A stretch of 64,000 nucleotides of DNA from Pseudomonadota bacterium (GTDB lineage Bacteria; Pseudomonadota; Gammaproteobacteria; Steroidobacterales; Steroidobacteraceae). The stretch lies in the NCBI GenBank assembly GCA_019352035.1, contig JABBNZ010000009.1, positions 3,989 through 67,988 on the forward strand, given 5' to 3'. A program made the translations under genes and the position numbers. Shown here in pieces: positions 9,658 through 16,037 of this stretch (position 1 is its first letter; each line of letters opens with the position of its first letter). The notes beneath the pieces were generated by a model, which saw only the letters and a list, made by a program, of their open reading frames with translations, had not been told where the DNA came from and did not search any database.

Positions 9658-10923
9658 GTGCCCCCCCATGCCGCCTCGTATTACACCGCCTCCGCCGGTC
9701 CCGTCCCCCACCGGGCCGCACTCGCCGGCTCAGTCGAATGCGACGTTTGCGTGGTCGGCGGCGGCATCGCCGGATGCTCGGCGGCGCTGCACTTGGCCGA
9801 GCGGGGCTTCTCCGTGGTCCTCCTCGAGCAGCATCGGATCGGCTGGGGCGCCTCCGGCCGCAGCGGCGGCCAGGCACTCCCCGGCATCGCTTCAGGTCAA
9901 GCCAAGCTCCAAAGACTCATCGGTCGGACCGCGGCACGGGCCGTCTGGGACGTCTCCGTCGAGGGGCTCACGCTCATGCGCGGGCTCATTGCGCGCCACC
10001 GGATCGACTGCGACTGGGTCGAGGGCTCCATGCTGACGGCCGTGAAGCCGCGGCATGACCGGGAGCTGCGCCAGGAACTGGACGAGCTGCAGGAGAAGCT
10101 GGAATACCGCAGCGTGCGCTACATGCCGCGGGAAGAGGTTCAGGCGACGCTCGGCACCCGTCGATATCTCGGCGCGCTCCATGATTCCAACGGCGGGCAC
10201 CTCCATCCGCTCAACTACACGCTCGGCCTCGCCGCGGCAGCGGAGCGCGCCGGGGTGCGCCTCCACGAGGATACGCGGGCGCTCGGCTTCACATCCGCGC
10301 GCGTGCGCACGCCGGGCGGCGAGGTCCGTGCGCGCCACCTGGTCCTCTGCGGCAACGTGTATCTCGGCGACGCCGCCCCGGCCCTCGCCTCCAAGATCAT
10401 GGCTGTCGGCACTCACATCATCGCGACGGAGCCCCTCGGCAGGGACCGCGCGCGGGAGCTTATCGTCAACAACGCCGCCGTGAGCGACATGAACTGGGTG
10501 CTCGATTACTTCAGGCGATCGGCCGATCACCGCCTCCTCTTCGGCGGCCGGGTCAGCTACTCCGGGCTCGGCTCTTTCGAGGCCCCGGGCGCGACACGCG
10601 CGCGCATGCTCAAGGTCTTCCCGCAGCTCGCCGACGTCCGCGTGGAGTACTCGTGGGGCGGCCACGTCGACATCACGCTCAATCGCGCGCCGCACTTCGG
10701 GCGGCTGCTGCCGACCGTCTATTTCCTGCAGGGATTCTCGGGACACGGCATCGCCCTCGCCGGGATTGCCGGCAAACTGGCGGCCGAGGCGATCGCCGGT
10801 CAGGCGGAGCGATTCGATGTGTTCGCGCGCATCCCGCACCAGGATTTCCCGGGCGGTGCGATCCTGCGAAGGCCGGCGCTGGTGCTCGCGATGTTGTATT
10901 ACCGGCTGAGAGACCTGCTATAG
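9658..10923 (+). CDS. FAD-dependent oxidoreductase (gamma-glutamylputrescine oxidase PuuB-like)
   Basis: SYYTASA...CDVCVVGGGIAGCSAALHLAERG...GASGRSGGQ closely parallels the E. coli PuuB N-terminus. It has a GTG start and an AT-rich divergent promoter region at 9620-9645. Confidence 0.86.
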   Translation: MPPHAASYYTASAGPVPHRAALAGSVECDVCVVGGGIAGCSAALHLAERGFSVVLLEQHRIGWGASGRSGGQALPGIASGQAKLQRLIGRTAARAVWDVSVEGLTLMRGLIARHRIDCDWVEGSMLTAVKPRHDRELRQELDELQEKLEYRSVRYMPREEVQATLGTRRYLGALHDSNGGHLHPLNYTLGLAAAAERAGVRLHEDTRALGFTSARVRTPGGEVRARHLVLCGNVYLGDAAPALASKIMAVGTHIIATEPLGRDRARELIVNNAAVSDMNWVLDYFRRSADHRLLFGGRVSYSGLGSFEAPGATRARMLKVFPQLADVRVEYSWGGHVDITLNRAPHFGRLLPTVYFLQGFSGHGIALAGIAGKLAAEAIAGQAERFDVFARIPHQDFPGGAILRRPALVLAMLYYRLRDLL

Positions 10924-11943
10924 AAGCTCGGCGATCTGCACGGCATTCAGGGCGGCACCTTTCAATAACTGATCGCCGGCGACGAAGAGCGCGATCGAGC
11001 GGCCGCTGGGGTCGCTGATGTCGCGGCGGATGCGCCCGACGAGGATCGCGTCCTGGCCGGAGGCGTCCTTCGGCATCGGGAAGTAGTTGCGCTGCGGGTC
11101 ATCGACCAGCTTCACGCCGGGGGCGGTCTGCAAGATCTCGCGCACCTGCTCGGGGGTGATGGGGCGCTCGCATTCGAAGTTGATGGCGATCGAGTGGGCA
11201 CGCAGCACCGGCACGCGTACGCAGGTCGCGGCGATGCGGATGGAGTCGTCCCCGAAGATCCTGTGGGTCTCGCGCACGACCTTGGTCTCCTCCTCGTTGT
11301 AGCCTGTCTGCGGGTCGACCTTGGCGTTGTGGCTGAAGAGGTTGAAGGCGTACGGATGCGGCAGCACCCGGTTCTCGTAGGGCTTGCCCTCGAGATAGGC
11401 CCGGGTCGACTCGCGCAGCTCCTCCATGGCGGCGGCACCGGCGCCGGAGGCGGCCTGGTAGGTGGAGAGGATCATCCGGCGCACGGGGTTGGTGCGATGC
11501 ACGGGCCAGAGCGGCGTGATGGCGATGATGGTCGAGCAGTTGGGGTTGGCGATGATGCCGCGGTGCCCGCGCACCGCCTCCGGGTTGATCTCCGGCACGA
11601 CGAGCGGCACCGACGGATCCATGCGGAAGGCGGAGGAGTTGTCCACGACCGCCGCCCCCTGCTCCACGGCGAGCGGCCCGAACTGCTTGGAGGTGCCGCC
11701 GCCGGCCGAGAAGAGCGCGATGTCCACGCCGCGGAAGCTGTCCTCCTGCAGCTCGCGCACGGGCAGCGGCCGGCCCTTGAAGGGCAGCGTCCGGCCCGCG
11801 GAGCGCGCGGAAGCGAAAAGCCGCAGCTCCGACAACGGGAAACGCCTCTCCTCGAGGCAGCGGATGAGCTCGATACCGACGGCGCCGGTGGCGCCGACGA
11901 TCGCGACCACCGGCGCCGAGCCGGCTGAACGACCTGACTGCAT
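10918..11943 (-). CDS. asd: Aspartate-semialdehyde dehydrogenase
   Basis: Contains VAIVGATGAVG, IIANPNCSTI (active-site Cys) and a C-terminal GDQLLKGAALNAVQIAE. The start is at MQSGRS (ATG 11943). Confidence 0.93.
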   Translation of the reverse strand: MQSGRSAGSAPVVAIVGATGAVGIELIRCLEERRFPLSELRLFASARSAGRTLPFKGRPLPVRELQEDSFRGVDIALFSAGGGTSKQFGPLAVEQGAAVVDNSSAFRMDPSVPLVVPEINPEAVRGHRGIIANPNCSTIIAITPLWPVHRTNPVRRMILSTYQAASGAGAAAMEELRESTRAYLEGKPYENRVLPHPYAFNLFSHNAKVDPQTGYNEEETKVVRETHRIFGDDSIRIAATCVRVPVLRAHSIAINFECERPITPEQVREILQTAPGVKLVDDPQRNYFPMPKDASGQDAILVGRIRRDISDPSGRSIALFVAGDQLLKGAALNAVQIAELL

Positions 11944-11963
11944 GGCGGGACTCCACAACGAAC

Positions 11964-11994
11964 GAGGCCCCGACGGCTGTGCCGGCGGGGCCTC
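11964..11994 (-). terminator. Hairpin in the asd 5' leader (candidate attenuator terminator)
   Basis: On the minus strand the sequence is GAGGCCCCGCCGGCACAGCCGTCGGGGCCTC (9+4 bp stem), followed by GUUCGUUGU. It lies 21 nt upstream of the asd ATG. Confidence 0.6.
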
Positions 11995-12020
11995 TGGTTG
12001 ACTCGCGTTTTTCCGGCTGC

Positions 12021-12101
12021 TCAGGCGCGCGCGAGATCCACCAGAGCCCCGCCTCGGGGCTTCTTCAGGGTGATCTTGCGCGTTTTGATCTGCCGGGTCA
12101 T
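12021..12101 (-). CDS. Candidate 26-aa leader peptide MTRQIKTRKITLKKPRGGALVDLARA
   Basis: This ORF is absent from the track because it is under 60 aa. 9 of the first 14 codons are Thr/Ile/Lys. There is no SD, but the ATG sits 9 nt after a TTTACA-N17-TACGTT promoter-like element (12139-12111), so the transcript may be leaderless. Confidence 0.4.
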   Translation of the reverse strand: MTRQIKTRKITLKKPRGGALVDLARA

Positions 12102-12160
12102 AACGGATCGAACGTACCGGAAGCGTGGCCTGGTGTAAAGGGCTTTCCGCCCCTGCGCGG

Positions 12161-14341
12161 TCAGGCCAGCCGGATCTCGAAACAGCGATGGATCCGCGGG
12201 TTGCGCTCGAAATCGCGCGGCAGCGTGACGGCCGAGATGTCACGGATCACATGGCGCTCCTGCAGCGCGGGGTCCAGCCGGAAGCGCTGGGCGTTGGTGG
12301 AGAAGACGAGCAGGCCGCCGGGTGCCAGCAGGCTGACGCAAGACTCGATGAGAGCGGCGTGGTCCCGCTCGACGTCGAGCACTCCCTGCATGCGCTTGGA
12401 ATTGGAGAAGGTCGGCGGGTCGAGGAAAATGAGATCGTACCGCTCGCGCGTGCGGGCGCCGTCCCGCAGCCACTCCAGGCAGTCGGCCTGAATGTACTCG
12501 TGCAGCCGCGCGTCGGTGAGGCCGGCGTTGAGCCCGAGATTGCGCTGCGCCCAGTCGAGATACGTCCGCGACATGTCGACGGAAGTGGTCGCGGCCGCGC
12601 CGCCCGCGGCCGCATGCACCGTCGCAGTTCCGGTGTAGGCGAAGAGATTCAGGAAGCGGCGTCCGGCAGCCGCTTCGCGCAAACGCACGCGGGTGATCCG
12701 GTGGTCGAGAAACAGACCCGTGTCGAGATAGTCGTCGAAATTCACCAGGAACCGCAGCCCGTGCTCGAGCACCGTGTGAAAGCGCCCCTGCTCCCCCACC
12801 TTCCCGTACTGCTCGCCGCGATGGGTGCGGCGGCGGGTACGCACCTTGATCCGCTCCGCCGGGATTCCCGTGACGCCGGGCAGAGCCGCCAGCGCCTCGC
12901 TGCGGCGCCGGCGCACCGCCTCGACCTCGATCTCGGCCGGCGCGGCGTACTCCTGCACGTAGAGCCAGCTCTCCTGCGGCTCGACCGTGCGATACAGATC
13001 GATCGCGAAGGCGTACTCCGGCATGTCGGCATCGTACAGGCGGTAACACGACACGCCGGCCCTGTCGGCCCAACTGCGCAGACGCTTGAGATTCTTGGCC
13101 AGGCGATTGGCGAACATGCGCGCGCCCGGCGCCTCGCGCAGGGACGAGTCCTCCCGACCCAGGGTACCGGGCCGCCGCAGGCTCGAGGGCTCCACGGTCA
13201 TGCGCAGCAATCGGCATTCGATGGCGCCGTTCCACAGGGCGTGAGTACGAGCCGCGCGGATGCCGAGCTCCATGCCGAGCTGGGGAGTACCCGTGAGCAC
13301 GGCTGCCTGCCAACCGCTGAAGCGCTCGCGCAGCACCTCGCCGAGCTCGCGGTGCACGGAGCGCGCCGCCTCCACGTCATCCAGCCGGACTCCGTATGGC
13401 GGGTTGGTACAGAGGAGCCCGGGGCCGCCTGGCCGGGCCGGCGCCGACTGCGACAGCGGGCGCGCCTCGAACTGCACCCAGCCGGCGAGGCCGGCACGCT
13501 GCGCGTTCGCGCGCGCATCCCTCACCGCGGCCGGATCGCGATCCTGCCCCCGGATCAGCGAGGTCGGCTGCGCGCTCGCCAGGCATCGGGCCTGCGCCTC
13601 CTCGCGCAGGCGCCTCCACAGCGCCTCATCGTGCCCCCGCCAGCCGAGAAAGCCGAAGTACTCGCGCCGCAACGCCGGCGCACAGCGCGCGGCGATCAGG
13701 GCCGCCTCGATGACCAGGGTGCCGGAGCCGCACATCGGATCCAGGAACTCGGCACCGGCGGCGGCGAGCTCCGGCCAGCCGCTGCGCACCAGCACGCCGG
13801 CCGCGACGTTCTCCTTCAGCGGCGCTTCGCCGGCGGCGGCGCGGTAGCCGCGGCGATGCAGACTCTCGCCGGAGAGATCGAGCGACAGGGTGACCTGCGT
13901 CCCATGGGCATGGGCATGCACGCGCACACTCGGCCGGTCCAACACGATGTCGGGTCGTGCGCCGCTCTCATCCCGAAGCGCATCCACGATCGCATCCTTG
14001 AGCTTCAGCGCGCCAAAGTGGCTGTGCGTGATCGTGGGATGCTTGCCGCTGAAATCGCATGCGAGCGTTGCGTGAGGTCCGAGGTGCCGCGGCCACTCGA
14101 CCTCCCGGGCGGCGCCGTAGAAGGCTTCCGCGCTCTGCGCCTCGAACCGGGCGATCTCGAGAAAGACGCGGTTGGCGAGCCGCGACTCGAGGCAGGTGCG
14201 ATACGCGGCCTCGAGCGTGCCGGTGAACGCCACCCCCGTCGTGCGCTCACGGACTTCAGCCGCGCCGAGCGCCGTCACCTCCTTCGCGAGGAGGTCGGCC
14301 AGCCCGCGCGGCACGCTGGCCAGGAACTGATGGGAACTCAC
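12161..14341 (-). CDS. rlmL: Bifunctional 23S rRNA m2G2445/m7G2069 methyltransferase
   Basis: 726-aa ORF with THUMP plus two methyltransferase regions (DPMCGSGT, TNPPYG, FLDPPTFSNSK), resembling RlmKL/YcbY. Confidence 0.9.
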   Translation of the reverse strand: MSSHQFLASVPRGLADLLAKEVTALGAAEVRERTTGVAFTGTLEAAYRTCLESRLANRVFLEIARFEAQSAEAFYGAAREVEWPRHLGPHATLACDFSGKHPTITHSHFGALKLKDAIVDALRDESGARPDIVLDRPSVRVHAHAHGTQVTLSLDLSGESLHRRGYRAAAGEAPLKENVAAGVLVRSGWPELAAAGAEFLDPMCGSGTLVIEAALIAARCAPALRREYFGFLGWRGHDEALWRRLREEAQARCLASAQPTSLIRGQDRDPAAVRDARANAQRAGLAGWVQFEARPLSQSAPARPGGPGLLCTNPPYGVRLDDVEAARSVHRELGEVLRERFSGWQAAVLTGTPQLGMELGIRAARTHALWNGAIECRLLRMTVEPSSLRRPGTLGREDSSLREAPGARMFANRLAKNLKRLRSWADRAGVSCYRLYDADMPEYAFAIDLYRTVEPQESWLYVQEYAAPAEIEVEAVRRRRSEALAALPGVTGIPAERIKVRTRRRTHRGEQYGKVGEQGRFHTVLEHGLRFLVNFDDYLDTGLFLDHRITRVRLREAAAGRRFLNLFAYTGTATVHAAAGGAAATTSVDMSRTYLDWAQRNLGLNAGLTDARLHEYIQADCLEWLRDGARTRERYDLIFLDPPTFSNSKRMQGVLDVERDHAALIESCVSLLAPGGLLVFSTNAQRFRLDPALQERHVIRDISAVTLPRDFERNPRIHRCFEIRLA

Positions 14342-14448
14342 GCGGCGCGTCTCGCGCCGGGCGAGGGATCGCCGTGGTTTGTCTCCCCGTGTGGCATTTC
14401 CTTATGATAAGGCGCTCCCCCGCCCCGCAGCCACCCCGCGAGCACCCC

Positions 14449-15783
14449 ATGGCCCACTCCGACAGCCTTTCCCGCGACGCCGACCTCGATGCGTTCTGGA
14501 TGCCTTTCACGGCCAACCGCCAGTTCAAGGCGAAGCCGCGCCTGCTGGCCCGGGCGAGCGGCATGCACTACTTCACGCCCGAGGGCCGGCAGATTCTCGA
14601 TGGCGTCGCGGGGCTCTGGTGCGTGAACGCCGGCCATGGCCGCAGCGAGATCACCGAAGCGGTCGCGCGCCAGCTCGGGACCCTGGACTTCGCGCCGACC
14701 TTCCAGATGGCCCATCCGTCCGCGTTCGAGCTCGCCACGGCGCTCGCGCGCATCGCCCCGCCCGGCCTCGATCGCATCTTCTTCACCAACTCGGGCTCGG
14801 AGTCGGTCGATACCGCGCTCAAGATCGCGCTCGCCTACCATCGGGCGCGCGGCGATGCCGCGCGCACCAAGCTCATCGGCCGGGAACGCGCCTACCACGG
14901 AGTGGGGTTCGGCGGCATCTCCGTCGGCGGGATCGGCAGCAACCGCAAGACGTGGTCGGCCTCGCTCCTGCCGGGAGTCGATCACCTGGCGCACACGCAC
15001 GATTTGAAGCGCAATGCGTTCTCGCGCGGCCAGCCTGCCCACGGCGCGGAGCTGGCCGAGGAGCTGGAGCGGCGGGTGGCGCTGCACGATCCCTCGACGA
15101 TCGCCGCGGTGATCGTGGAGCCGATCGCGGGCTCGACCGGAGTGCTGATCCCGCCCCGCGGCTACCTGGAGCGCCTGCGCCAGATCTGCGACCGCCACGG
15201 CATCCTCCTCATCTTCGACGAGGTGATCACGGGCTTCGGGCGTGTCGGGGCACCCTTCGCCGCGCAGGAATTCGGCGTGACACCGGACATCATGACGACC
15301 GCGAAGGGTCTGACGAACGGCGCGGTCCCGATGGGCGCCGTGCTGGCGAAGCGGTCCATTCACGACGCCTTCATGCAGGGTCCGGAAGGGACGATCGAGC
15401 TCTTCCACGGGTACACGTATTCCGCGCACCCGACGGCCTGCGCCGCCGCGCTCGCCACGCTCGGGATCTATGCGCGCGAAGGGCTGCTGACACGAGCGAA
15501 ATCGCTCGCTCAGTACTGGGAGGATGCCGCGCACTCGCTGCGCGGACTGCCGCACGTGATCGACGTGCGCAACTACGGGCTGATCCTCGGCCTGGAGCTG
15601 GAGCCGGCCGCCGGCCGGCCCGGCGCCCGCGGATACGCGATCTATCTCGATTGCTTCGAGCGCGGTCTGCTCGTGCGCCAGAGCGGCGACATCATCGCAC
15701 TCTCACCGCCGCTCGTCGTCGAGCGCCCGCACATCGATCAGATGTTCGGAACGCTCGCCGAGGCGCTGCGCAATCAGCGGTGA
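14449..15783 (+). CDS. Class III aminotransferase (omega-amino acid/beta-alanine-pyruvate transaminase-like)
   Basis: Contains FWMPFTANRQFKAKPR, GLWCVNAGHGR and IFDEVITGFGR...TTAKGLTNG. The start is at MAHSDSL (ATG 14449). Confidence 0.88.
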   Translation: MAHSDSLSRDADLDAFWMPFTANRQFKAKPRLLARASGMHYFTPEGRQILDGVAGLWCVNAGHGRSEITEAVARQLGTLDFAPTFQMAHPSAFELATALARIAPPGLDRIFFTNSGSESVDTALKIALAYHRARGDAARTKLIGRERAYHGVGFGGISVGGIGSNRKTWSASLLPGVDHLAHTHDLKRNAFSRGQPAHGAELAEELERRVALHDPSTIAAVIVEPIAGSTGVLIPPRGYLERLRQICDRHGILLIFDEVITGFGRVGAPFAAQEFGVTPDIMTTAKGLTNGAVPMGAVLAKRSIHDAFMQGPEGTIELFHGYTYSAHPTACAAALATLGIYAREGLLTRAKSLAQYWEDAAHSLRGLPHVIDVRNYGLILGLELEPAAGRPGARGYAIYLDCFERGLLVRQSGDIIALSPPLVVERPHIDQMFGTLAEALRNQR

Positions 15784-15911
15784 CGGTGGTGCCTGCGGTG
15801 CACCAGCGTCATCCACGCCGCGGTGGCGACGACGACCAGGCTGCCAAGCAGCAGCCCCATGTCGAAAGTCGAGATGGCCCGGGTCGATTCGATCGTGACG
15901 GTCGGCAACAT
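15774..15911 (-). CDS. Possible 45-aa single-TM miniprotein with a His/Arg-rich tail
   Basis: GGAGAAATGTC precedes the ATG. The sequence is MLPTVTIESTRAISTFDMGLLLGSLVVVATAAWMTLVHRRHHRHR. I recognise no homology. Confidence 0.25.
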   Translation of the reverse strand: MLPTVTIESTRAISTFDMGLLLGSLVVVATAAWMTLVHRRHHRHR

Positions 15912-16037
15912 GACATTTCTCCGTGGCAGCGGAGCTTCGCTCGTGGTACAGGCTGCCAGCCTCGCCGGGCAGAGTGAAGCGGCGGCGCGCCGTTCTGCGA
16001 TGCGCTTCACCCTGCCCGTAAGTTATGTTTCATCTGC

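Follow-up and report, generated by a model that had tools for sequence, protein, structure and literature searches.

A candidate transcription attenuator was found directly upstream of the asd gene in a 64,000-nucleotide (nt) stretch of the genome of a Steroidobacteraceae bacterium (Gammaproteobacteria; assembly GCA_019352035.1, contig JABBNZ010000009.1, positions 3,989–67,988), referred to below as the window. The asd leader is read here as a ribosome-mediated leader-peptide attenuator that would sense threonine and lysine and control asd transcription; judged from the sequence and its comparison with relatives, the probability of this reading is about 0.74. It is suggested by a short open reading frame (ORF) rich in Thr and Lys codons, by mutually exclusive RNA pairings that covary among relatives, and by a stall geometry in which antitermination is lost directly after the last of these codons. 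The same leader plan was found upstream of asd in at least about 37 loci and apparently represents a conserved, uncatalogued family located before asd genes of the asd_B type in several Alpha- and Gammaproteobacteria.

The product of asd is the last enzyme that the branches to Lys, Thr and Met (and Ile) share, and the branch point to diaminopimelate lies there as well. Since the leader would count Thr and Lys codons together, its control of asd would be multivalent.

Organization of the asd leader

All elements of the leader lie on the minus strand, and direct reading placed the promoter, the ATG, the 26-codon ORF, the pairing segments and the terminator where the initial annotation had located them. 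The predicted promoter of the leader and asd consists of a -35 box TTTACA (12134–12139) and a -10 box TACGTT (12111–12116) separated by 17 nt, and the leader ATG (12101) follows 9 nt on. This promoter was missed by a promoter scan, as it has 8 of 12 consensus positions and the scan threshold was 9. The ORF (12021–12101, TGA at 12023–12021) encodes the peptide MTRQIKTRKITLKKPRGGALVDLARA. Four Lys, three Thr and two Ile codons are found among its codons 2–14, and the regulatory block comprises codons 5–14 (I K T R K I T L K K; 12060–12089), which end with the tandem AAG AAG of Lys13 and Lys14 (12065–12060).

Each of the 1:2, 2:3 and 3:4 pairings proposed initially was found independently by an inverted-repeat search (I14, I12/I2 and I1, respectively). 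Segment 1, the 5' arm of the inner hairpin (AGCCCCG, 12055–12061), is fully complementary over 7 nt to the core of segment 2, the 3' arm (CGGGGCU, 12045–12051; I14), and this core is shared with the antiterminator (I12). The 5' strand of the antiterminator (GGCGGGGCUCUGGU … CUCGCG) occupies positions 12030–12053, with GGCGGGGCUCUGGU at 12053–12040; its 3' strand (CGCGAG … ACCAGAGGCCCCGCC, 11984–12007; I2, I12), with ACCAGAGGCCCCGCC at 11998–11984, overlaps the 5' arm of the terminator. The 14-bp antiterminator of the initial annotation is thus present and its extent was understated, because CUCGCG (12035–12030) also pairs with CGCGAG (12007–12002) and lengthens the helix. The predicted terminator hairpin GAGGCCCCG-C-CGGC-ACA-GCCG-U-CGGGGCCUC (11964–11994; -26.7 kcal/mol) has 14-nt arms with 93% complementarity (I1) and is followed by the U-rich tail GUUCGUUGU (11955–11963). 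A simple terminator scan missed this hairpin, probably owing to the 1x1 mismatch within the stem.

In the minimum free energy (MFE) folds, the inner hairpin is nested in a longer outer helix, named P1, and the terminator is formed as well. The 5' strand of P1 (CGCGC-AGAUCACC, 12069–12082) contains the conserved Lys-Arg codons AAA ACG CGC, and its 3' strand (GGU-GGAUCU-CGCGCG, 12028–12042) has an alternative role as the antiterminator extension. The MFE of the 167-nt leader was -80.6 kcal/mol compared with -63.2 +/- 3.6 kcal/mol in 200 dinucleotide shuffles (z = -4.9), none of which folded as well. Complementarity of segments 1:4 is also present in the window leader (I7, inverted-repeat search). 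In addition, AAAACGCG is a direct repeat (D2) with one copy in region 1 and one in the spacer, on the 3' strand of the antiterminator, and both copies are complementary to CUCGCGCG. Such a duplicated sequence with a common complement is the usual signature of competing partners.

The asd gene (10918–11954; 341 aa) begins with the Shine-Dalgarno sequence GGAG (11954–11951) and the ATG at 11943 and ends with the stop codon at 10920–10918. The asd frame is also open upstream, through the leader and into the end of rlmK/L (10918–12243, minus strand), which gives a 441-aa ORF. This ORF is a by-product of the G+C content of about 70%; the true start of asd is ATG 11943, since GGAG precedes it and the resulting length matches that of the 341-aa homologues.

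A search against Rfam gave no match in the window at the gathering score, and at E ≤ 10 no leader or riboswitch family, including RF00506 (Thr_leader) and RF00168, was found in the region 11700–12400.

Conservation of the leader in relatives

Ten loci of close relatives were retrieved as contigs encoding asd homologues, and more distant relatives were collected by asd-based scans of GTDB genomes and Joint Genome Institute (JGI) metagenomes, in which the asd products of the matches listed were mostly 51–80% identical; locus counts for the wider family are counts among these listed matches. The asd protein of the window is 100% identical to one protein from a metagenome-assembled genome (MAG) of Proteobacteria and 88–95% identical to many proteins from Steroidobacteraceae MAGs. 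The initial annotation had named conservation of the leader ORF and stems in relatives as a test of its proposal, and both were found to be conserved, in the ten close and in at least about 26 more distant loci.

The ten close relatives (asd identity 88–95%) share the gene order rlmK/L, a 217–226-nt spacer and asd, and their spacers align well. They keep the promoter boxes, the ATG and the codon block K-T-R-K-I-(T/I)-(L/I)-K-(K/T/N)-P, in which synonymous changes occur (AAG/AAA, ATC/ATT, CTG/CTC). The codons in the loop of the inner hairpin vary non-conservatively (RGG, WQG, FPG, RPG) with the hairpin retained, and the terminator differs only in its loop. In all ten close-relative loci with listed genes, the short ORF had been left uncalled by gene callers.

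The more distant loci retain the short ORF, the inner hairpin, the antiterminator complementarity and the terminator. The carriers belong to Steroidobacteraceae, two further gammaproteobacterial MAGs, Acidisphaera, MAGs of Acetobacteraceae and Rhodospirillales, and five Bradyrhizobium species (for example MFTTTKRTTKTTTASGARGGVRT); about 15 are metagenome contigs. Their shared plan comprises a sigma-70-type promoter, an ATG, an ORF of 21–29 codons, the inner hairpin, a near-invariant GGCCCCGCC hairpin and usually a U run. Leaders of the Acetobacteraceae/Rhodospirillales type (L013, L016, L017, L116, L119) have a conserved motif GACAUAG in common, located in the spacer that separates the terminator from the leader stop codon; it is missing from the other subgroups, and no pairing partner could be assigned to it.

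Using an nhmmer profile, a single copy of the element was found in the window (12145–11956, minus strand). Among 172 related loci the profile gave 42 plus-strand matches, all of them 5' of asd (38 full-length or nearly so and four cut by contig ends), and six weak minus-strand matches (E 0.018–0.48), five of which correspond to the reverse complement of the terminator. A covariance model, R1, scored 35 leaders at 56–115 bits. The possibility of a REP-like (repetitive extragenic palindromic) repeated element was rejected, the hairpin core occurring once in the window.

Synteny with rlmK/L is limited to the close relatives; a different gene lies upstream in L001, in Bradyrhizobium and in others. 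The element therefore belongs to asd and not to rlmK/L. In the loci L083 (300–400) and L084 (2960–3030), whose asd products are 77% identical, the promoter CTTTACAC…GGTAGCGT stands directly before asd, and neither a leader ORF nor a terminator was found between the two. This shows that the promoter is that of asd. The attenuator module has been gained or lost within the group that includes these loci and the carriers.

Promoter and codon content of the leader ORF

A -35 box of the TTGAC/TTTAC type, TTTACA or TTGACG, a spacer of 16–18 nt (usually 17) and a -10-like hexamer were recognizable in 27 of the 31 non-redundant members of the family. The distance from the -10 hexamer to the ATG was 6–11 nt in 30 of these 31, and no Shine-Dalgarno sequence was found before the leader ATG in any of them. 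Transcription normally begins about 7 nt past the -10 box, so the 5' untranslated region would be about 0–4 nt long. The leader ORF is therefore most likely translated from a leaderless, or nearly leaderless, mRNA. An ORF of 21–29 codons was kept in all homologues, and in 36 of 37 its stop codon was followed by the terminator after 19–33 nt; the exception is L102 with 6–9 nt.

To count codons, the peptides were anchored on the first codon of the inner hairpin. Before the hairpin, 107 Thr (30%) and 72 Lys (20%) codons were found among 361, which together make up 50%, compared with 34 of 365 (9%) in the rest of the ORF (Fisher p = 1e-34). In the other two frames of the same nucleotides the share of Thr and Lys was 10% and 5%, and the expectation from base composition is about 18%. 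Hardly any codons for Asn, Gln, Glu, Asp or His, likewise A-rich, occur before the hairpin. Because the bias is specific to the frame and these residues are scarce, it concerns the amino acids themselves and not A-richness. Positions -1 to -5, -7 and -8 relative to the hairpin are mostly Thr or Lys, and position -6 is a conserved CGC (Arg). Of the Lys, Thr and Ile codons pointed out in the initial annotation, Thr and Lys thus proved to be family-wide and Ile to be minor, being common only in the clade of the window; Met codons are added in a few members (L119, TKRTMKTMT; L099; L102).

At its 3' end the ORF contains a conserved RNA motif, (G/U)GCGCGC, which is read in different members as …RA, …AR, …CAC or …VCVQ, each followed by the stop codon. 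The frame in which GCGCGC is read differs between homologues, which places the constraint at the level of the RNA. GCGCGC pairs with the conserved AAA-CGC region, so both the Arg codon and the 'ARA' end can be explained without a functional peptide. An arrest peptide of the TnaC type was also considered and was judged unlikely, as the reading frame of the conserved 3' motif varies.

Alternative pairings

When 14 leaders were aligned with MAFFT and analysed with RNAalifold, the terminator alone was recovered and the 5' domain was misaligned; a covariance-model realignment was used instead. In all homologues the inner hairpin is found in the same place with a varied sequence (GCCC/GGGC, GGCC/GGCC, CCAC/GUGG, CUCC/GGAG). 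For P1, columns 25–27 are paired with columns 74–76 in 30–34 of 35 sequences, and the pair 29:72 covaries (CG in 15, AU in 10).

The off state, consisting of P1, the inner hairpin and the terminator, was tested on the model-fitted alignment A5. It was found to be paired in 70.1% of cells versus 65.5% in column shuffles, with slid controls at no more than 52.7%. Its covariation score was 0.178 versus 0.127 in shuffles, none of 500 of which reached it, and slid controls gave at most 0.136.

The on state is the antiterminator, to which A5 had not been fitted. Here the 3' arm of the inner hairpin and the bases that follow pair with the 5' arm of the terminator and the preceding 5–6 nt, and P1 contributes its 3' strand, the partner of which is a spacer motif (in the window, CGCGAG). 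This state was paired in 66.9% of cells (shuffles, 61.5%; slid controls, at most 50.7%) with a covariation score of 0.164 (shuffles, 0.100, reached by 0 of 500; slid controls, at most 0.088). In the antiterminator, five or more pairs showed double changes, among them columns 62:126, 63:125, 66:122, 71:117 and 72:116.

An alignment-free test was also performed, in which a ribosome was placed over the 5' arm of the inner hairpin and the energy of pairing between the terminator 5' arm and the leader was compared with that in dinucleotide-shuffled leaders. The stabilisation of the antiterminator was -21.5 kcal/mol in the window versus -6.3 kcal/mol in shuffled leaders (z = -5.6). Over 31 members the mean z was -2.7, and 23 of the 31 were below -1.64. 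Overlap between the antiterminator partners and the inner-hairpin 3' arm was seen in 26 of 31 leaders (3–7 of 4–8 partner nt); in four of the five leaders without overlap the inner hairpin had been automatically mis-assigned.

The antiterminator pairing is mutually exclusive with the terminator and with the upstream anti-antiterminator hairpin. The one set of alternative pairings initially described does exist, and P1, which was not listed there, adds a second: the leader has two tiers of alternative helices, with P1 competing with the antiterminator extension and the inner hairpin with the antiterminator core.

The terminator core GCCCCGC…CGGGGC is nearly invariant in the family. In most homologues a canonical GC-rich stem is followed by 5–7 U; the tails read GUUCGUUUU in the close relatives and UUUUUCGUU or UUUUUUGUU in most other homologues.

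Ribosome stall geometry

For stall folds, nascent transcripts of the window ending in the terminator loop were used, and the ribosome was assumed, from general footprint and toeprint knowledge, to cover the mRNA to 12 nt past the first base of the A-site codon. With Leu12 or Lys13 in the A site, the antiterminator (-45 and -41 kcal/mol, respectively) took up the whole 5' arm of the terminator. With Lys14 in the A site, the antiterminator (-32 kcal/mol) paired GAGGCCCC and left the last bases of the arm (GCC) free. Only GAG of the arm was paired with Pro15 in the A site, and no pairing of the arm was found with Arg16 or the stop codon in that position. Stalls up to codon 14 of the window leader thus spare the antiterminator and those from codon 16 onward abolish it. 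In these models a ribosome stalled at the regulatory codons is predicted to mask region 1 and not region 2. The folding of the window leader, together with these stall constraints, agreed with the initial annotation: the antiterminator was switched off after the tandem Lys codons, which had been pointed out there and are the last stall positions compatible with antitermination.

When transcripts of the 37 homologues were truncated, every one showed upstream pairing of the terminator 5' arm for stalls up to about codon 13–14; in the two longest leaders (L017, L089) this pairing persisted to stalls at codons 16–17. The boundary lies directly after the last Thr or Lys codon and is sharp in most homologues, less so in L007, L008, L010, L095 and L102.

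Equilibrium folding of full-length leaders with ribosome masks was counted as supportive only. In the window, the probability of the terminator was about 0 for stalls at codons 4–12; it was about 1 when the ribosome was at codon 16 or later, was at the stop codon or was absent, and the behaviour was as expected for the window and about two thirds of the homologues.

Proposed mechanism

Transcription would start from the TTTACA-N17-TACGTT promoter at the leader AUG or a few nt before it, and the 26-codon ORF would be translated without a Shine-Dalgarno sequence. With Thr-tRNA and Lys-tRNA plentiful, the ribosome would pass the Thr/Lys block and reach the UGA. The ribosome would then cover the 3' part of region 2, or the inner hairpin 1:2 would re-form underneath or behind it; the 5' arm of the terminator would be free, the GAGGCCCCG…CGGGGCCUC hairpin would form, and the polymerase would stop 20 nt before the asd ATG.

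If Lys-tRNA or Thr-tRNA runs short, the ribosome would stall within about codons 5–14, most effectively at codons 11–14 (T L K K); in the clade of the window, scarcity of Ile may also count. The stalled ribosome would mask segment 1 and the 5' strand of P1. The freed GGCGGGGCUCUGGU…CUCGCG could then pair with CGCGAG…ACCAGAGGCCCCGCC once the latter is transcribed, the terminator would not form, and asd would be transcribed. We infer from the leader sequence that its response to amino-acid supply is most likely of this sign, with asd transcription raised when Thr or Lys is short.

Alternative explanations

Several observations weigh against an attenuator of this kind. The gain of the off state over column shuffles is modest (70% versus 65.5% of cells paired), the kinship of the sequences inflates covariation scores, and the invariable terminator core yields no covariation evidence. 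The regulatory codons are few in the clade of the window, where one critical Lys is replaced by Thr, Asn or Glu in some close relatives. The leader ORF has no Shine-Dalgarno sequence before it and is putatively translated from a predicted transcription start. The U tract of the window is weak (5 U in 9 nt), and the loci L017 (270–320) and L102 (2880–2910) keep the ORF and the GCCCCGCC…GGACGGGGC hairpin, followed by GCGC… with no U run. For these reasons intrinsic termination is not guaranteed everywhere; in L017 and L102 the hairpin may serve a different purpose, or any termination that occurs may depend on Rho. Finally, about ten homologues with very stable terminators favour the terminator at every stall position at equilibrium, and free truncated RNA often favours the antiterminator even without a ribosome. 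Because equilibrium folding is ambiguous in this way, the switch must be kinetic and co-transcriptional, as for trp.

The weak or missing U runs and the equilibrium behaviour of those ten homologues would also fit a short ORF that regulates asd in some other manner, namely through Rho-dependent termination or polarity, mRNA stability, access to the ribosome-binding site or general translation capacity, independently of Thr and Lys. In the window, moreover, segment 2 (GGCGGGGCUC, 12044–12053) shows 90% complementarity to the asd ribosome-binding region (GAGUCCCGCC, 11944–11953; I6). However, this complementarity is not conserved even in close relatives, most homologues have the canonical stem with its run of U, and a general sensor of translation would leave the strict choice of Thr and Lys codons unexplained. 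Such a mechanism is considered unlikely. Sequestration of the Shine-Dalgarno sequence by segment 2 or 4 was rejected as a separate candidate, as close relatives do not share the sequence on the ribosome-binding side. The 3' arm of the terminator could also pair at the asd ribosome-binding region; the complementarity of this region is probably due to chance.

The leader RNA or the 26-aa peptide could instead act in trans, as a dual-function small RNA or small protein, with cis control of asd being secondary. The strong conservation of the leader sequence is in line with this, and the leaderless trp attenuator RNA and peptide of Alphaproteobacteria (rnTrpL/peTrpL) reportedly offer a precedent (PMC6614838, PMC7298713). 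On the other hand, the C-terminal half of the ORF is conserved as an RNA motif in different frames, which argues against a role of this half at the peptide level; the codons of the hairpin loop change non-conservatively, and the element was always found directly 5' of asd, and only there, among the 172 loci searched with nhmmer. A trans function as the principal one therefore appears very doubtful, and it would be compatible with Thr/Lys-sensing attenuation. Two broader proposals, that a terminated leaderless RNA of about 135–140 nt or its peptide acts in trans on aspartate-pathway genes, or that a cassette of promoter, sensor and gene has moved horizontally with asd_B between Alpha- and Gammaproteobacteria, are speculative and taken together rather unlikely.

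A riboswitch-like RNA that binds a metabolite or protein, with the ORF being incidental, would account for the high conservation of the RNA motifs GUGCGCGCG and GGCCCCGCC, and of GACAUAG in one subgroup. Against such an RNA, no Rfam family was matched, that of the Lys riboswitch included, the structure consists of nested hairpins only and lacks a multi-helix junction, the start codon is kept at a fixed distance from the promoter, and the frame with its Thr and Lys codons is retained through deep divergence and indels; this makes it highly improbable. The proposal that the hairpin is simply the terminator of rlmK/L, with the ORF and pairings arising by chance in a GC-rich spacer, draws on the lack of another terminator between rlmK/L and asd and on the frequency of short ORFs in GC-rich DNA, and it appears effectively refuted by the comparative data, since the whole element precedes asd in lineages without an rlmK/L neighbour and has its own conserved promoter, a fold z of about -5 and an antiterminator z of -5.6.

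Neighbouring genes

The identity of the flanking genes was supported by family matches (asd, of the asd_B type, NF011456, 1e-128; rlmK/L, NF008748, 4e-269). The upstream neighbour, a bifunctional rlmK/L gene, is located outside the element at 12161–14341 on the minus strand (stop codon 12163–12161). No recognizable terminator was found between its stop codon and the asd promoter (12140–12160, minus strand). As rlmK/L has no terminator of its own, its transcripts must enter the leader, and the attenuator hairpin probably doubles as the rlmK/L terminator. No Pfam or NCBIfam match was obtained for the long ORFs 5' of rlmK/L at 14338–15977, one of 405 aa on the minus strand and two, of 469 and 532 aa, on the plus strand.

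On its other side, asd converges with a gene for a DAO-family FAD-dependent oxidoreductase on the plus strand (9658–10923; PF01266, 3e-69). The two overlap by 6 nt at 10918–10923, which leaves no space for a terminator. A 315-aa ORF on the minus strand (9892–10839) is a shadow ORF of the oxidoreductase gene.

Significance and comparison with known systems

To our knowledge, the regulation of asd outside enterobacteria and Firmicutes is poorly known. The leader described here would represent a conserved, previously uncatalogued attenuator family that reads Thr and Lys codons, and Met codons in some members, and it would explain in a simple way how the common pathway comes under multivalent control in Bradyrhizobium, Acetobacteraceae, Steroidobacteraceae and their relatives. 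It also supplies a missing annotation, because the short ORF is left uncalled in close relatives and there is no Rfam model for the leader. The leader ORF may be added to the known leader peptides of proteobacteria, probably as one translated from leaderless mRNA, and the leader could serve as a sequence-defined Thr/Lys-responsive part in metabolic engineering. No principle is overturned, as the mechanism would be classical and the idea had already been hinted at for one genus, Sinorhizobium.

Reportedly, from the work of Rodionov et al. in 2003, the lysine riboswitch (L-box, RF00168) controls lysC, asd and dap genes in Firmicutes and some Gammaproteobacteria. Like the mechanism proposed for the asd leader, it is a terminator-based RNA control of aspartate-pathway genes that responds to lysine. 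It differs in binding the metabolite directly, in having a five-helix junction and in needing no translation, whereas the asd leader has only nested hairpins.

Attenuation of asd was not described in the studies of Naville & Gautheret 2010, Sun et al. 2013 and Korolev et al. 2016, nor in the Caulobacter map or the papers on Bradyrhizobium transcription start sites or short ORFs, and SMc04410 gave no literature match. The statement of the initial annotation that leader-peptide attenuation had not been described for asd was therefore nearly right; it has to be amended for a Thr/Lys-rich short ORF of Sinorhizobium that was suggested to encode a leader peptide (PMC10117765). In that study, Hadjeras et al. 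2023 reported SEP5, a short ORF with six Thr and three Lys codons in the 5' untranslated region of a gene annotated as 'aspartate dehydrogenase', and demonstrated its translation with the use of Ribo-seq and a Western blot; SEP5 was reported as restricted to Sinorhizobium, and the scope of the study did not extend to attenuator structure or regulation (PMC10117765). The gene downstream of SEP5 encodes Semialdhyde_dh domains and is thus asd.

SEP5 resembles the leader ORF of the window in having a cluster of Thr and Lys codons in a short ORF directly 5' of asd. However, SEP5 (ending in …LARKTTAKTTTKTV; L174:2553–2672, L173:2501–2617) is 39 aa long, has its own Shine-Dalgarno sequence and is located about 113 nt 5' of asd. 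Its Thr and Lys codons are clustered at the very 3' end, right next to the stop codon, and its hairpins are CCCCGG-UAAGG-CCGGGG and GCGGUC-GGA-CCGC followed by GGUUUCC. With the filters off, model R1 gave no match in the spacer between SEP5 and asd in L173 and L174, the best hit (E 0.16) lying elsewhere in the locus. Compared at the sequence level, SEP5 is a non-homologous functional analogue, probably of independent origin.

For the trpL leader peptide of Sinorhizobium, translation takes place on an mRNA that begins at the AUG and so is leaderless (PMC10117765). The rnTrpL/peTrpL system is therefore similar to the proposed asd attenuator as a ribosome-dependent attenuator of Alphaproteobacteria with a leaderless leader peptide, but it senses Trp, controls trpE(G), has another sequence and structure and possesses demonstrated trans functions.

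The closest parallels are with thrL (RF00506) and trpL. In both, as in the asd leader, a short ORF rich in codons for the end product lies 5' of a biosynthetic gene, the pairings 1:2, 2:3 and 3:4 are mutually exclusive, and an intrinsic terminator, in the asd leader a predicted one, stands just before the structural gene; thrL is also multivalent, with Thr and Ile. Neither sequence nor covariance-model similarity to them was found, RF00506 being absent even at E ≤ 10. The target here is asd, in the common pathway, and not thrABC, and the codons are those of Thr and Lys, sometimes with Met. Unlike in thrL and trpL, the asd leader ORF has no Shine-Dalgarno sequence, its start probably coincides with the mRNA 5' end, it spans region 2 and stops 19–33 nt before the terminator, and the alternative helices form two tiers. 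In its predicted function, the asd leader would nevertheless be of the thrL/trpL type, with a classical mechanism as described by Yanofsky.

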